A stretch of 64,000 bases of DNA from contig JAEOTZ010000023.1 of the NCBI GenBank assembly GCA_016839585.1, positions 1 through 64,000 on the forward strand, written 5' to 3'. Position numbers and translations under genes: made by a program. Source of the DNA: Promethearchaeota archaeon (GTDB taxonomy: Archaea; Asgardarchaeota; Lokiarchaeia; Sigyniarchaeales; SOKP01). Positions 29,980-57,812 of this stretch are shown here, in pieces. Position 1 is the first letter of the stretch; each line of letters starts with the position of its first letter. The notes below the pieces were generated by a model. It ran no database searches. It worked only from the letters and a program-made list of their open reading frames with translations, and was not told where the DNA came from.

Positions 29980-30516
29980 TTGATAGAAATTGATGACGCA
30001 GGAACGGGGGATCTTGTAGGAGATGCATTTATTGGCCTCCTAAGAAAAGAGACCGGGAAATTAATTTTTAGAACCTTACCGGTTGAGCTATTTAAGGGAG
30101 ATAATTGGAAAAACAAACTACCTTTTAAAATTGTAGTTGACTTAGTTAAAGAGGGGCTGAAAGAATTAAATTTCAATAAAAACAGTGAAATGATAAAAAT
30201 TTGTAGGGGAAATATTTTTAATCAAGTAAGAGCTTATTTTATAGAAGAGGGAATAAATTATGAAAATTCTATAGTAGAAGGAAAATTACAGGATGCTGTA
30301 GAAAACAAATTAATTACTCATCTTAGAGAAGACTTAGGAGTTAGATCTAGAAATCTGACAACTAAAAGTGGAGCAAAAAGATTTTTTATTTTATTTAATT
30401 GGGTTTGTTATGATTTTTTCAATAGAGAAAAATATGTAAAGTCAGGTTTTAAGAAATGGAATACAGTCTGGAGAGATCGAGCTATTGAAAAAAATAAAAA
30501 AATAAAAAATTCATAA
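29980..30516 (+). CDS. RNase H-like fold hypothetical protein
   Basis: IEIDDAGTGDLVG resembles the RNase HII N-terminal acidic motif. Confidence 0.6.
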   Translation: MIEIDDAGTGDLVGDAFIGLLRKETGKLIFRTLPVELFKGDNWKNKLPFKIVVDLVKEGLKELNFNKNSEMIKICRGNIFNQVRAYFIEEGINYENSIVEGKLQDAVENKLITHLREDLGVRSRNLTTKSGAKRFFILFNWVCYDFFNREKYVKSGFKKWNTVWRDRAIEKNKKIKNS

Positions 30517-30699: not shown

Positions 30700-33027
30700 A
30701 TGCGAAATATTGGGTCTCCTCCTTCTAAAAAAAAATTTATCGGAGCTTTAACATTATTAGCTCTTGGTTTTGCTTTGATACCGACCGGTTTTCTGCTTAA
30801 TGATTTTATTCAAACTGAAATTGATAAAGGTATTGCTGATGAAATTCGAATACCTGAACTGGATGACTCAGGTTATGATGAATGGATATCAAATGATTAT
30901 CCAAGTGCCATTCCTATGTACAGAAAATTTTATATGTGGAATTTAACTAATCCTATTGAGTTTCTTATGGGAAAGAAACCAGAGCTTGAAGAGATTGGTC
31001 CTTATACTTTCCGGGAATATACAACAAAATATAATGTGAGTTTTAGTGCCAATATGGATGAGGTAACCTATAAACAATACCCAACATATATATTTCAGCC
31101 TGATATGTCTGCTCCCTTATGCTCTCTGGATGATAATATTATAAACATAAATCCTGCCTATTTAGGAGTTCTGGAATTAGCAGGAAATGAGGAAAATCTA
31201 ATTAAAGCCATGTTTCCAACTGTTCTTTCAGAAGTGAAAACCCTATTTGGAGAAGAATTAAATGTAACTCTAGGAGAACTTTTGACTAATGAAGGAATTT
31301 ATAACATGCTCGTAGGGGCTTTGTATGACATACTTAGCGATTTATTTTCTGGACTTCTTGGTGATGGGGCGATAAACCTAACTGCTACATGGATAGTTGA
31401 TTTTCTTACTACATACATCGTACCGTTAGAAGATCTGGTGGAATTTATGGATGATGCGATGCCTAGTGCTGAAGCAATTTTCTTTGCGGAATGGGCAATT
31501 GATTATTTTCCTGAAGTTCAAGTGGATTTATCTATTTTATTTGGACATATATTAGAAGTAATAAGCGATCTTGTTGATTTTATTATTGATCTCATTTTCT
31601 TTTGGGATGTTTTACACTTATTTGATGCTATTAAGGATGCTCTACATGAAGAACTTATGAATATGTTTGAAGAGTTGTTTACTGAATCTCCAGTAGCAGA
31701 ATTAATTGGAGGACTCTTTGCGGATTTGATCCGAAGTCTAGGCGCTAAAATGGTTGATGAGGAAGGTAGCGAGACGGGTGAAGGGGTTGATATTGATGGT
31801 CGAGAACCCTATAATTTTCCAGGTCCAAGTTCTGATCTAAATATCATTAATCGTAGTGAAGCCGGTGAATCTGGAATCACTCAGGAGCAATGTCAAGCTC
31901 TTTGGGATCAGAACAACCCAAACTCACTTCTTGGTATGGATGTACAGGTTAATCCGATATGGTTTGAAGCATTAGCAGGAATTGAAGAAAGTAAAATATT
32001 CTTAATGAATGCATTTTATTTAAATGAAACTCAACTAGATTTAATTTTGAATTGGATTGATACTAGTTTAACTGGATGGCAAAAAAATATTTGTGAATAT
32101 TCGATAAAAGATTGGAATAGCGGTTTACTTACTACTCGTACTGTCGAAGAATGGCTCTTCACAGCTGTTGACAATTTAGTAAATGAACAAAACCCTGCAA
32201 AAGCAAAAGTAGGGTTTTTTGACAATTGCTTTTCTGAAACTGAAGCGGAAGCTGAGGATATGAAAAGTTTTACCGTAAATACAGGTAAAAATGATATTAA
32301 TAAAGTCTGTGAGATTGTTAAATATGATGGTAAGGAAAATATTACTGTTTGGGAAGAAGAAGAAATTGTTCAAGGTACAGCGGGTACTCAATTCGCACCG
32401 GGGGTTTCTAAAAATAACCCTCTTTATGTCTTCATAACTGATTTATTAAGAGCAGTAGAGATTATCTATACTGAAACTACTAGTATTTATGATATTGAAT
32501 TATATAGGTTTGAAATATCGGAAGAGACCTTTAAAGTTAACCCAAAATACTACCAATCCATTGAAGGGTTAGCTAATATGACAGTAGATCAAGGAATTCC
32601 TGCTTTCTTAAGTAAACCTCATTTTCTTGATGCAAGTAGCTATCTGAAAGATTCTGTGACTGGTTTAGATCCCAATAAGGCAGAACATGACACTTATCTT
32701 GATATTGAGCCTTTAACGGGCGCTGCAATGAATGCAGCTGAAAGAATACAGATTAATTTTCTGGTTAATCAAACTGATAAATGGTATATAAACTGCTGGG
32801 AAGGCATGATGCCTATTGTTTGGCTTGAATTTGGTGGACAAATAACAGAAAATCTAGCAAATAAATTCAAAAATTTGGTTTATACCGCTCAAAATCTAAG
32901 TGAAAATCTGTTCTATGGATGTATTAGTATTGGGGCTACCCTGATTATTCCTGGTGTGATTTTTACAACAACACAGAATAGAAAGCGATTAAACGTTAAA
33001 AAACAAAAATTATCACAAAGCGTTTAA
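30700..33027 (+). CDS. CD36/LIMP-2 (scavenger receptor class B)-like membrane protein with large helical insert
   Basis: N- and C-terminal TM; FYMWNLTNP, EEIGPYTFRE, GTAGTQFAP, SKPHF, HDTYLDIEPLTG, RIQIN. Confidence 0.88.
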   Translation: MRNIGSPPSKKKFIGALTLLALGFALIPTGFLLNDFIQTEIDKGIADEIRIPELDDSGYDEWISNDYPSAIPMYRKFYMWNLTNPIEFLMGKKPELEEIGPYTFREYTTKYNVSFSANMDEVTYKQYPTYIFQPDMSAPLCSLDDNIININPAYLGVLELAGNEENLIKAMFPTVLSEVKTLFGEELNVTLGELLTNEGIYNMLVGALYDILSDLFSGLLGDGAINLTATWIVDFLTTYIVPLEDLVEFMDDAMPSAEAIFFAEWAIDYFPEVQVDLSILFGHILEVISDLVDFIIDLIFFWDVLHLFDAIKDALHEELMNMFEELFTESPVAELIGGLFADLIRSLGAKMVDEEGSETGEGVDIDGREPYNFPGPSSDLNIINRSEAGESGITQEQCQALWDQNNPNSLLGMDVQVNPIWFEALAGIEESKIFLMNAFYLNETQLDLILNWIDTSLTGWQKNICEYSIKDWNSGLLTTRTVEEWLFTAVDNLVNEQNPAKAKVGFFDNCFSETEAEAEDMKSFTVNTGKNDINKVCEIVKYDGKENITVWEEEEIVQGTAGTQFAPGVSKNNPLYVFITDLLRAVEIIYTETTSIYDIELYRFEISEETFKVNPKYYQSIEGLANMTVDQGIPAFLSKPHFLDASSYLKDSVTGLDPNKAEHDTYLDIEPLTGAAMNAAERIQINFLVNQTDKWYINCWEGMMPIVWLEFGGQITENLANKFKNLVYTAQNLSENLFYGCISIGATLIIPGVIFTTTQNRKRLNVKKQKLSQSV

Positions 33028-33120
33028 TCATATTTATATTCCATCTATCAAAGATTAATATATAAATGTTGCTTTTGAAAGTTAATGAATTATAACTGAA
33101 CAATTCTTAATAGGTGTATA

Positions 33121-33822
33121 ATTCTTACGGTTAATAAAAAAAATACTATTGATCATGAATTTGTAATTTTAGAGAGTATTAGGGATAACCCTGGAGGAGT
33201 TACAGCTTCAGATATAGCTAAAATTACAAAATTCTCAAGAAATACTGTTTCTAAATATGTTCGCAGCCTTGAGGTTACAAATCAAATATTTAGTAAAAAA
33301 GTTGGTGCTTATAAATTATATTTTGCCGTGGAAAAGAGGTATATTCCATTCGAAACTGCTATTTCATACTACAAAGCACTTTTATCAAAAATTAAAAAAC
33401 ACTTCCCAGATACAGAGGAAATAGCAAAAAAAATCGGAAGAGAGGCTGTTAAAGATATAAAATTTACATTTGGACCCAGCATTTATAAACAATTAAAAAG
33501 CATAAAAGATCATCCCATTTCAAGAATACACTTAGAAAGTTTCAAAAGTTATTACTCTGCTTATGATATTTTTCAACCCAATATCGATATTTCCATTTTA
33601 AAAATAGATCCAGAAGGTAAAAAAGCAACTTATAGATTTAAAAATTCTGTCTTTTTAGAAAATTCTGATGAGTTTATATATCATCTTTATATTATGTGTG
33701 GGATTAGTGAAGGAATACTTAATAGAGTATTAAAAACAGAAGTATCATGTGAAATTGAGCAAATTTTTATTTCTGATAATAAAGAGGACTCTTTTTTTGA
33801 TCTAAAAATTAAAATAAAATAA
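33121..33822 (+). CDS. Winged-helix + V4R-like protein (frame open from 33100; probable ATT/ATA start, ORF track starts at 33328)
   Basis: Upstream in-frame GVTASDIAKITKFSRNTVSKYVRSLE...KKVGAYKLY HTH; AGGTG at 33112-33116; V4R-like CGISEG in the C-terminal part. Confidence 0.8.
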   Translation: MLTVNKKNTIDHEFVILESIRDNPGGVTASDIAKITKFSRNTVSKYVRSLEVTNQIFSKKVGAYKLYFAVEKRYIPFETAISYYKALLSKIKKHFPDTEEIAKKIGREAVKDIKFTFGPSIYKQLKSIKDHPISRIHLESFKSYYSAYDIFQPNIDISILKIDPEGKKATYRFKNSVFLENSDEFIYHLYIMCGISEGILNRVLKTEVSCEIEQIFISDNKEDSFFDLKIKIK

Positions 33823-55256: not shown

Positions 55257-57812
55257 CTATTTTCGTTTAGTTAGTAGTAGCCATATAGTAAAAAGAGCGC
55301 TTATAGCAAGGAGTACACTTCCACTAATAATAAAACTCATAAAATAAATATTACCGATTTCATCGTGATTTAATGGTAATCCTGATTCTTCTTGTAATAA
55401 ACTAAGAGCAAAATTATCACGAATAAAATTTAACCAATCTAAAATTGCATCCATTTGATCATTATTTAAATCAAGGGCATTTTTTAAATAATTATATGTA
55501 CTGGATACTTTCATTGCTTTAAACCATTTTGGAAATCCTAAATGGTTAGTGAGCGCTAAATCATTAAGATCATTAGTGTGAAAAGGAATCCAAATTGTAG
55601 TAGGAGACCAAAGTATTTCTGCTACTTCTTTAGTAATATTTGTAGATGTTGGGATACCCACTTCCCAACCATCAAGCGAATCAACCCCTATTATTAAAGA
55701 TGCACCGGGATCCAGTCCCTCCTTGAATAATGAACCATTTGTCCATTGACGATAAAATTCAAAGACTGTTAAATCTTCCAACGTATAATACTCTGGAAGG
55801 TGTGTAATTGGATGCTCATAAGCTGTAGCAATCTCAACCATGTTTGGGACTACAATATTCTTAAATGTGGTAAATAACCAATTAGTTATCATGTTGAATT
55901 GAGTATTATTAAGTTGAAAAATATTCATTAATTCTGCTTGTACAGTTGGATTTACCTCATATGCTTCAATCCATTTTAAAAGTCCATCTTTATTGATAAA
56001 TGCTGATTTATTATACTCGTCAAAGAGAGCAGTAGCTGTAGATAGTGAAATATTACTTGGAGTTGGAACGCCCACTTCAAATCCTTTAGTTCCACTTCCA
56101 AATGGATCCAGATCTAACCCACTACTATCTACAGTTCCATTAGCCCATTGCATTAAAATTACAACAGGTGCATATTCCAATGGTGTAACATTTTCTCCTT
56201 GGAAATTTAAGTAAGTAAATAAAATTGGTACAATAATTAGTCGAATTGTATTGAATATCCATCTATAAAATTGGCTGTGAGTGGTATTATAAATTAAAAA
56301 TTCATCCATATTAAAAGTTGCATTTAATTCATTTTGCGCTGTTATATCTCCCTTATAAGCATCAAACCATTTTTTAATTCCACTTTCATTCACAATTGAA
56401 TGTGAATTACTTGGATCCCATAAATCTTGAACTGTACTATTTATAATATTAGACGCATCAGGAATACCTAATTCCAGACCTTTTTCTTCGACTGCCGCAA
56501 CTATATCTCTGATTAAATAATCGCTTATATATTCTCCTAATGGTAGAAGTTGATCATTCCACGTAGCATTGTATGTAGTTTCCATCAAAGTTCTGGTTCC
56601 AATATCTATAATAGCTAAATCATAAAGAACCATCCATTTTACTAGACCAAGACCAACTGATAATTGAGTCAACAAACCAGGGGAATCAAGATAACCATCA
56701 AGTAATCGTTCTTGAGCAGTAGAAGTATAATTTAAACTGTACGTAACATTACTCACATGCTCCGATACTCCCTTAAGAGTGGATGAGATATTAGTTTGTA
56801 CTGTATAATTATTGAAAAACCATTCTCTTGCAAGGGTTTCATTATCTTCTGTATATAATTTTATCTCTCTTATTGTTTTAGAGATATAGTAAGCTCCTAC
56901 TATGCTTTTCATCTCAAACTCAAGTTCTTCGAGAATATCTTCTAAATTTAATCCACTTGGGTAATAAGAGCCATTTGTCCATTGACTATAAAATACTGAA
57001 TTCGCATAAGTTTCTATATCTAAAGGTTCATATTCCTTTTTAACAATCTCAGGCCAAAGAAATGTAGTGATATAAGCCGATACGTTTTGGAGTTGTTTAG
57101 AATTCCAAGAACAATTATAAACTAATTCCATTGTACTTCTTGAACCAGGATCAACTTCTGCATCAGCATAAAAATCTAACCATTCTATAAGACCTACACC
57201 AGTCTCAAGATCAGTAAGTATTCCTGGATAGTCAGTATCTCCCAGCGTATACCCATACAATATTTTAGAAGACGTACTAGATGAATAGTTAAGACTTACT
57301 GTCCCACCCATCATACGCTCCGAAATTCCTTCTATTGCAGTAGAAAAATCATCTTGAAAAGTATAATTATTGAAAAATTGGTTTCTGGCGTTATCCCAAG
57401 TACTACTGTTATAGATCGTTAAATTAGCTATTGCGTTATAAATAATATTAGCAGCTCCTGTGCTATTTATTATTAAAGGTAATTTCTTAAGAGTTCTGTT
57501 TTGAAGGATTAATAGAGTATCAGGAATGGCTTCAACTTTAACCACATCATCAGAAATATTTGGTGCTAACATATTTCGGATTCCATCAAGAACTTCAGGA
57601 ATTCCTAAACCAAGAAATTGGGATTCTATTTCAGGAAGAACTTCTTCTTGAATTTGTAAAAGTGTATTCGGAATTTCAGCATAAACTTCGTTTCTAATAT
57701 ATCCATTTATTAATGCCCCAACGGGCATCAATCCTAAACTAAAAGCTATTGCAAGTACCGAAATGTATAGTTTTGCTTTAGATAGCATAATAAATATTTT
57801 GAATTGTTTCAT
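55257..57812 (-). CDS. Two-TM surface glycoprotein built from repeats of the CD36-insert module
   Basis: Terminal TMs; three QW(T/A)NG, three ExGxP and repeated LNxxQ..I..W motifs also seen in the insert of 30700..33027; many NxS/T sequons. Confidence 0.75.
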   Translation of the reverse strand: MKQFKIFIMLSKAKLYISVLAIAFSLGLMPVGALINGYIRNEVYAEIPNTLLQIQEEVLPEIESQFLGLGIPEVLDGIRNMLAPNISDDVVKVEAIPDTLLILQNRTLKKLPLIINSTGAANIIYNAIANLTIYNSSTWDNARNQFFNNYTFQDDFSTAIEGISERMMGGTVSLNYSSSTSSKILYGYTLGDTDYPGILTDLETGVGLIEWLDFYADAEVDPGSRSTMELVYNCSWNSKQLQNVSAYITTFLWPEIVKKEYEPLDIETYANSVFYSQWTNGSYYPSGLNLEDILEELEFEMKSIVGAYYISKTIREIKLYTEDNETLAREWFFNNYTVQTNISSTLKGVSEHVSNVTYSLNYTSTAQERLLDGYLDSPGLLTQLSVGLGLVKWMVLYDLAIIDIGTRTLMETTYNATWNDQLLPLGEYISDYLIRDIVAAVEEKGLELGIPDASNIINSTVQDLWDPSNSHSIVNESGIKKWFDAYKGDITAQNELNATFNMDEFLIYNTTHSQFYRWIFNTIRLIIVPILFTYLNFQGENVTPLEYAPVVILMQWANGTVDSSGLDLDPFGSGTKGFEVGVPTPSNISLSTATALFDEYNKSAFINKDGLLKWIEAYEVNPTVQAELMNIFQLNNTQFNMITNWLFTTFKNIVVPNMVEIATAYEHPITHLPEYYTLEDLTVFEFYRQWTNGSLFKEGLDPGASLIIGVDSLDGWEVGIPTSTNITKEVAEILWSPTTIWIPFHTNDLNDLALTNHLGFPKWFKAMKVSSTYNYLKNALDLNNDQMDAILDWLNFIRDNFALSLLQEESGLPLNHDEIGNIYFMSFIISGSVLLAISALFTIWLLLTKRK

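Follow-up and report, generated by a model that had tools for sequence, protein, structure and literature searches.

CD36-family proteins serve in lipid uptake, phagocytosis and lysosome function, traits central to the feeding and membrane handling of the first eukaryotic cell. Does this receptor family also belong to the archaeal relatives of eukaryotes? The question is raised by one gene in a 64,000-nucleotide stretch of a Promethearchaeota genome (NCBI GenBank assembly GCA_016839585.1, contig JAEOTZ010000023.1, positions 1 to 64,000; hereafter the window), which forms the start of contig 5 of an Asgard metagenome-assembled genome (MAG; G000) of 99% completeness and 2.2% contamination. The 775-amino-acid product of this gene is a true class-B scavenger-receptor (SR-B; CD36/LIMP-2/SR-B) family member of an Asgard archaeon, and we conclude that the family probably does belong to archaeal relatives of eukaryotes as well. 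A literature search found no paper linking CD36, LIMP-2 or SCARB with Asgard lineages, and the survey of 165 eukaryotes that placed SR-B in the last common ancestor of eukaryotes (LECA) makes no mention of archaea or other prokaryotes (PMC10715195). New here are a profile-based homology between the apex of the Asgard protein and that of protist forms, a family of module-repeat proteins, a variable slot in the locus, a corrected gene model for the neighbouring regulator and a tree built from the conserved core only.

An Asgard protein with CD36 sequence and fold

Pfam CD36 (PF01130) matched the protein with E = 1.8e-98 and 330.5 bits (cut-off 26.5), in two pieces, with profile positions 3-172 at about residues 23-196 and positions 123-462 at residues 431-755. 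A phmmer search against PDB returned LIMP-2 (4q4b, E = 5.5e-43) and CD36 (5lgd, E = 1e-39), aligning residues 40-152 with LIMP-2 chain positions 8-114 and residues 449-730 with positions 116-408; the intervening stretch of about 295 residues (153-448) is without counterpart in animal proteins. The family's core motifs (GPY.YRE type, PHF and D.EP.TG..M.A..R.Q.N) align residue by residue with LIMP-2, and G100, P101, P640, E670, P671, G674, Q684 and N686 are nearly invariant in an alignment of 128 relatives from Asgard archaea and eukaryotes. Hydropathy analysis found three hydrophobic stretches only, at residues 12-37, 277-305 and 736-758, of which the middle one lies inside the insert and contains four acidic residues, while the outer two coincide with long model helices (10-49 and 717-774). 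Since the short basic tails (12 residues, +4, at the N end; 18 residues, +6, at the C end) point to a cytoplasmic location, the large ectodomain is predicted to face outwards; it is probably N-glycosylated, and the protein has ten N-x-S/T sequons.

A first structural model, from an alignment of 17 close homologues, was poor (predicted local distance difference test score, pLDDT, 60). The model used here was built from the 128-sequence alignment and reached a pLDDT of 93.2 and a predicted template-modelling score of 0.84. Foldseek placed LIMP-2 and CD36 at the top (E = 2.5e-26, template-modelling scores of 0.82-0.85 on the target), and VIA-align superposed the model on LIMP-2 (4f7b) with Z = 41.5 and a root-mean-square deviation (rmsd) of 2.1 Å over 368 of 389 residues, and on CD36 (5lgd) with Z = 40.1 and 2.3 Å over 376 of 400 residues (28-30% identity across both); the CD36 barrel and the canonical apex helices are therefore all present in the model. 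In the model, the insert consists of some ten additional helices (152-356), then a loop of 38 residues, then further helices (395-458) leading into the conserved apex helix, which together place some 290-300 residues at the membrane-distal apex. Both sets of helices have pLDDT values mostly of 89-98, with a dip to 59-85 near residues 281-340 and a value of 77 in the 381-390 loop.

On these points the initial annotation holds. It had proposed a CD36-family homologue with several signature motifs, a hairpin with two terminal membrane helices and an acidic, hydrophobic helical insert of roughly 300 residues; the Pfam match and the LIMP-2 superposition bear out the family, the residue-level alignment the motifs, hydropathy and model helices the hairpin, and the phmmer gap and composition the insert, while the β-barrel it asked about is recovered at Z values of 40-41.5. 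The Asgard protein shares with LIMP-2/SCARB2, CD36 and SR-BI (PF01130; PDB 4F7B, 4Q4B, 5LGD) the two-pass hairpin, the whole ectodomain fold and the core motifs, and differs from them by an apex enlarged by about 290 helical residues, by its archaeal host and by its linkage to a winged-helix regulator. A second barrel, that of the bacterial protein LmcA from Mycobacterium smegmatis (PDB 7N3V, 7SHW), gives a weak superposition with the CD36 core (Z = 11.2, 232 residues, rmsd 5.6 Å, 12% identity; Foldseek E = 4e-4), with a differing topology and no sequence relation detected; LmcA is not a family member, and on these model comparisons it may be an analogue in structure or else very remotely related, possibly a distant outgroup.

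Table 1. Features of the receptor gene and other genes of interest, in window coordinates
Feature	Coordinates	Strand	Evidence
CD36/SR-B family protein gene (P0001), 775 amino acids	30700..33027	+	PF01130; LIMP-2/CD36 sequence and fold matches
N-terminal membrane helix (about residues 13-33) after a basic tail (residues 1-12, +4)	30736..30798	+	hydropathy 12-37; model helix 10-49
CD36 core, N-terminal part, residues 36-152, strands with GPY.FRE-type motif	30805..31155	+	aligned to LIMP-2 chain 8-114; profile 3-172
Apex insert, residues 153-448, acidic, hydrophobic, all-helical	31156..32043	+	lies between the two aligned core pieces
Apex module, residues 385-458	31852..32073	+	module HMM matches; hhalign of inserts
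CD36 core, C-terminal part, residues 449-734, KPHFL and D.EP.TG motifs	32044..32901	+	aligned to LIMP-2 chain 116-408
C-terminal membrane helix (about residues 737-757) before a basic tail (+6)	32908..32970	+	hydropathy 736-758; model helix 717-774
Winged-helix regulator with V4R-like C-terminal domain	33103..33822	+	conserved in-frame winged helix; HTH_24; V4R look-alike 0.93
u178, 178-amino-acid gene upstream of the receptor	29980-30516	+	conserved
851-amino-acid two-pass membrane protein, three tandem apex modules, no CD36 core	55257..57812	-	module HMM (hmmsearch) E 2.1e-17, 3 copies

Close homologues (35-92% identity) all come from Asgard MAGs, where they are annotated as hypothetical proteins; the NCBI label 'CD36 family protein' already stands on one Heimdall protein. 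Among 400 Asgard genomes, PF01130 scored above its cut-off in 28, spread over six Genome Taxonomy Database (GTDB) families and including both Loki-type and Heimdall/Kari-type lineages. Every one of these matches is split in two, and the insert is therefore universal among the Asgard members. A candidate compact archaeal form (P0084, 517 amino acids, NCBI 'CD36 family protein') was rejected; its N-terminal core is absent and the gene starts at base 21 of its contig, so that it is probably truncated.

The apex insert and the eukaryotic receptors

The first part of the insert (residues 153-384) holds 45 acidic (D+E) against 6 basic (K+R) residues, with a grand average of hydropathy of +0.45, and the insert is conserved among Asgard homologues. 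Searched alone, it matched no Pfam family, and its best Atlas look-alike scored 0.77, which we do not find convincing. Its last part is a module of some 70 residues with the motif SGIT..LWD..NPNSL..W..A..G...FL...F.L...QL..IL.WI (residues 385-458). Comparison by hhalign of the Asgard insert profile with a profile of long-apex eukaryotic inserts gave a probability of 99.1% and E = 6e-19 over 160 columns, with the first apex helix, a 'PSAE..F..WANDYF'-type stretch and the module among the aligned parts. A hidden Markov model (HMM) built from the Loki-type module only also matched the apex of eukaryotic long-form SR-Bs, with E values down to 2e-14 (Cavostelium 1.5e-9, Luapelamoeba 1e-9, Rigifila 1e-3); Pygsuia gave no match to this HMM at E ≤ 0.01, and single-sequence searches with the insert did not reach eukaryotes convincingly. 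On these profile comparisons, part of the Asgard insert is homologous to the apex of amoebozoan and Rigifila SR-Bs.

In long-apex protist SR-Bs (the Dictyostelium LmpA/B/C type and relatives), the apex is expanded at the same position as in the Asgard protein, and in those of Amoebozoa and Rigifila the first apex helix and the module of about 70 residues are the parts homologous to it. The protist module follows about 90 residues after the N-terminal core and is succeeded by about 140 more, whereas in the Asgard protein the module comes after some 190 hydrophobic and acidic residues (about 190-375) that are specific to Asgard, and it runs directly into the core. Asgard inserts range from about 175 to about 1200 residues, Heimdall/Kariarchaeaceae members included. 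The long inserts of six Heimdall-type proteins (470-1200 residues), of P0063 and of the Loki-type P0036 contained no Pfam domain at E ≤ 0.001. As a separate observation, the 900-1200-residue apex inserts of the Heimdall/Kari-type proteins P0045, P0047, P0049 and P0051 each contain a single recognisable module, with no Pfam domain.

When 1.84 billion cluster representatives were searched exhaustively, 3607 relatives were recovered, among which the best matches after the Asgard group were eukaryotic proteins of 740-820 residues with an apex gap of about 300 residues at the same position. The long-apex eukaryotes named were Luapelamoeba, Endostelium, Dracoamoeba, Cavostelium and Balamuthia (Amoebozoa) and Rigifila (CRuMs); in Pygsuia (Breviatea) the apex gap measures 275 residues. 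A careful unrooted tree was computed from the core only, with the insert left out (74 rows, 24 of them Asgard; 391 columns; IQ-TREE, LG+C20 with posterior mean site frequencies), and its bootstrap had not fully settled (correlation 0.961). The 24 Asgard rows occupy one side of a branch (ultrafast bootstrap 98, Shimodaira-Hasegawa-like approximate likelihood ratio test 93; support is given in this order below), a split present in 98% of bootstrap trees, with the Loki-type rows as a clade (100/100) and the Heimdall-type rows basal. The long-apex eukaryotes adjoin the Asgard clan and are thus its nearest eukaryotic neighbours on this tree; Amoebozoa and CRuMs form a group without Asgard rows (93/88), and the Asgard proteins are therefore not nested within it. 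Compact forms lie on the far side (83/88), including a 14-row clade (100/98) with all eight named animal sequences. A quick 66-row IQ-TREE run and a FastTree overview agree with this topology. The initial annotation had held that nesting inside a eukaryotic clade would count against an archaeal gene; with protist and animal members in the tree, the Asgard clan (98/93) falls in no sampled eukaryotic clade.

Function and ancestry

By analogy with LIMP-2, SR-BI and CD36, we propose that the Asgard protein is a regulated surface receptor or conduit for lipids, a reading to which we assign a probability of roughly 0.6. In the eukaryotic relatives, the tip of the apex is the ligand-contact site. The Asgard receptor would sit at the cell surface, anchored by its hairpin with the ectodomain outwards; its enlarged tip would capture a hydrophobic ligand or make contact with a source of lipid (a partner cell, a vesicle or detritus, for example); the barrel would pass lipid between tip and cell membrane; and the neighbouring regulator would set expression of the receptor in response to a small molecule sensed through its V4R-like domain. 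Binding or transfer of lipids and other hydrophobic ligands is known for LIMP-2, SR-BI and CD36, and a lipid tunnel is described for them, in PMC6684646, PMC5712522 and PMC5052687; the tunnel of the eukaryotic relatives is also treated in PMC10715195. The gene would thereby be a candidate for lipid exchange or scavenging by syntrophic, protrusion-bearing archaea, accompanied by a putative regulator and by a family of related surface proteins. With a conserved Asgard clade, the eukaryote-type proteins of Asgard archaea would come to include a receptor that handles membranes and lipids.

For the history of the family, the same proposal would mean that CD36 proteins were already present in the Asgard archaea related to the eukaryotic ancestor. 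We tentatively go one step further, at odds that we put short of even, and suggest that the long-apex form could be ancestral for the entire CD36 family. Asgard relatives of the eukaryotic ancestor would then have had a regulated hairpin lipid receptor with the helical module, the first eukaryotes would have inherited a form of the LmpA/B/C type, the compact three-helix-bundle CD36 of animals would be a later reduction, and in Loki-type archaea the module would have spread into exchangeable surface proteins under the same regulator. The published survey judged that the apex expansions between helices α4 and α5 arose independently in particular lineages, and proposed that LECA had a compact apex of three helices (PMC10715195); an ancestral long apex, if true, would reverse that proposal, and the homology of the Asgard apex with that of amoebae makes it a testable question.

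Two other origins have to be weighed. Eukaryotic contamination or a binning error might be suspected from the fact that the family is described from eukaryotes only in the literature searched. The gene is, however, a single intron-free open reading frame (ORF) within a contig of at least 64 kb, from a genome with little contamination (2.2%), and more than 15 Asgard MAGs, each assembled independently, keep its neighbours in the order selD-selD-cinA-u178-CD36-regulator-Zn ribbon-TPR; this conserved synteny refutes contamination, to which we give a vanishingly small probability, and bears out an archaeal origin of the gene, the other outcome on which the initial annotation had depended. The main evolutionary rival is an old transfer, in which an ancient protist with a long-apex SR-B of the LmpA/B/C type gave the gene to an Asgard archaeon, after which it spread among Asgard archaea; the locus would then be uninformative on the archaeal ancestor of eukaryotes. 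Such a transfer would account for the patchy occurrence of the gene (28 of 400 genomes, 7 of 53 species in the window's genus) and for its position in a slot of variable content, which in sister genomes is filled by other cargo; the nearest eukaryotes are the long-apex amoebozoan, CRuMs and breviate forms, the group that shares the apex module (Pygsuia not matched), midpoint rooting places the root within eukaryotes, and the gene has a GC content of 34% in a window of 27.5%. Yet the Asgard proteins form a clan of their own (98/93) outside Amoebozoa and CRuMs (93/88), their divergence is as deep as that among the protist long forms, with carriers in both Loki-type and Heimdall-type lineages, GC at third codon positions is native-like (23%), and the module also builds a protein family that matches in 91 of 400 Asgard genomes and whose named members are all Asgard. 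This family lies mostly within one Loki-type family and order and does not therefore settle the direction of transfer. On balance we regard the transfer as somewhat unlikely. With no root, a short branch between the Asgard and the eukaryotic proteins and a bootstrap that had not fully settled, the tree does not fix the direction of descent; whether the gene qualifies as a 'eukaryotic signature protein', as the initial annotation had suggested, depends on the root.

The main functional rival to the lipid receptor is a purely adhesive role, in which the protein would serve chiefly in adhesion or recognition, with a tip that attaches to a partner cell, to a surface or to a virus and a barrel that is only a scaffold and moves no lipid. 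The tip is indeed the most variable part of the family (Asgard inserts of about 175-1200 residues, protist ectodomains of 413-2294), the module is repeated in CD36-less surface proteins able to replace the receptor at the same locus, the protein carries its ten N-glycosylation sequons, and eukaryotic CD36 proteins act as recognition receptors too (PMC10715195). We nevertheless consider this alternative unlikely because barrel and core motifs are strongly conserved from Asgard archaea to eukaryotes, which fits selection beyond that on a scaffold, and because the neighbouring regulator has a domain of a small-molecule type (V4R-like).

We caution that several observations weigh against a regulated lipid receptor inherited within the archaea. 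Archaeal membranes consist of isoprenoid ether lipids, and the ligand may therefore differ from those of the eukaryotic proteins. A continuous hydrophobic tunnel through the ectodomain is assumed from the near-complete superposition of the modelled fold. The metazoan disulfide pattern is not kept: the six ectodomain cysteines stand at other positions, and across 17 Asgard homologues C510 is the sole invariant cysteine, which excludes membership in the metazoan subgroup and not in the CD36 family. Pfam V4R (PF02830) had no match at E ≤ 1 in any of 12 regulator orthologues, nor did PDB profiles lend support, and a regulator orthologue also occurs in genomes in which no CD36 gene was found. In the window's genus, PF01130 was found in 7 of 53 species (one further genome, G217, has a gene cut by a contig end), and this patchiness marks an accessory gene and is compatible with transfer. 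Finally, the branch that separates Asgard from eukaryotic rows in the unrooted tree measures 0.14.

The neighbouring regulator and the module-repeat family

Standard ORF calling gave the downstream neighbour of the receptor a 164-residue product without a Pfam family, with the DNA-binding winged helix cut off. The frame is open for 76 codons further upstream and encodes a winged helix conserved in all orthologues (…ILESIRDNPGGVT.SDIA..T.FSRNTVSKYV…). Pfam HTH_24 matches the window's regulator with 25.1 bits (cut-off 21.9) and all 12 orthologues searched (E ≤ 1, lowest 1.7e-7), and the best PDB match is an IclR regulator (6.8e-6). Orthologues start with GTG or TTG; because the winged-helix extension in this genome contains no ATG, GTG or TTG, translation probably begins at an ATT (33103 or 33148) or at the ATA at 33118. 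The C-terminal half resembles V4R in a language-model look-alike search (0.93, 181 of 256 shared features), in which 18 of 30 matches came from clusters where a minority of members (18-33%) carry V4R; as this resemblance is the support for V4R, we call the domain V4R-like and not V4R. The initial annotation, which had proposed an adjacent winged-helix V4R gene as the receptor's regulator, thus stands as to the winged helix and the conserved linkage and is not confirmed, by the Pfam result in the 12 orthologues, as to V4R proper.

The linkage itself is conserved, the regulator adjoining the CD36 gene in at least 20 loci, including the divergent L026, L027 and L033, where position and strand have changed. 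In three genomes without a CD36 match (G185, G206 and G216) it stands head-to-head with a module-repeat gene, and the linkage is therefore one to module-bearing surface proteins in general. A scan for promoters and terminators returned fewer matches than in shuffled sequence. In two loci (L045 8001-11469 and L046 8001-10995), a spacer of about 50-120 bp separates the regulator from a module-repeat gene in head-to-head orientation, amid otherwise unrelated neighbours, as if the pair were a mobile unit of two genes.

The source genome encodes two module proteins beyond the CD36 homologue, one of them in the window (Table 1). This protein has terminal hydrophobic helices and many N-glycosylation sequons and matched no Pfam family, and its named relatives all come from Asgard MAGs. 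Together with its counterparts in other loci (L047 8817-11465, L045 and L046), it shares with the receptor the N-terminal membrane helix, the juxtamembrane pattern, the apex module and hairpin anchoring, as well as, in three genomes, the neighbouring regulator; these proteins differ from the receptor in lacking the CD36 barrel and any Pfam family and in repeating the module three to four times. Module matches come mostly from genomes of the GTDB family and order to which the window belongs, where one genome often has several such stretches; beyond that order they come from CD36-positive genomes and probably represent the CD36 protein's own apex.

Genomes of the genus differ in what they carry between u178 and the regulator. 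A CD36 homologue occupies this slot in at least nine genomes. In G185 (L047 8817-11465) it holds an 882-residue protein on the opposite strand, with a similar N-terminal membrane helix and four tandem modules, in which neither a CD36 core nor a Pfam family was found, and in G226 (L048 5699-7944) a sulfotransferase and an ORF without an assigned family take the place of the CD36 gene. The u178 protein, for which Pfam gave no family match, is kept in synteny by every close relative, also by genomes that lack the CD36 gene. In two MAGs, an extra 570-residue protein with two modules is encoded directly upstream of the CD36 gene (L020 4215-5927 and L022 2081-3790, both on the minus strand).

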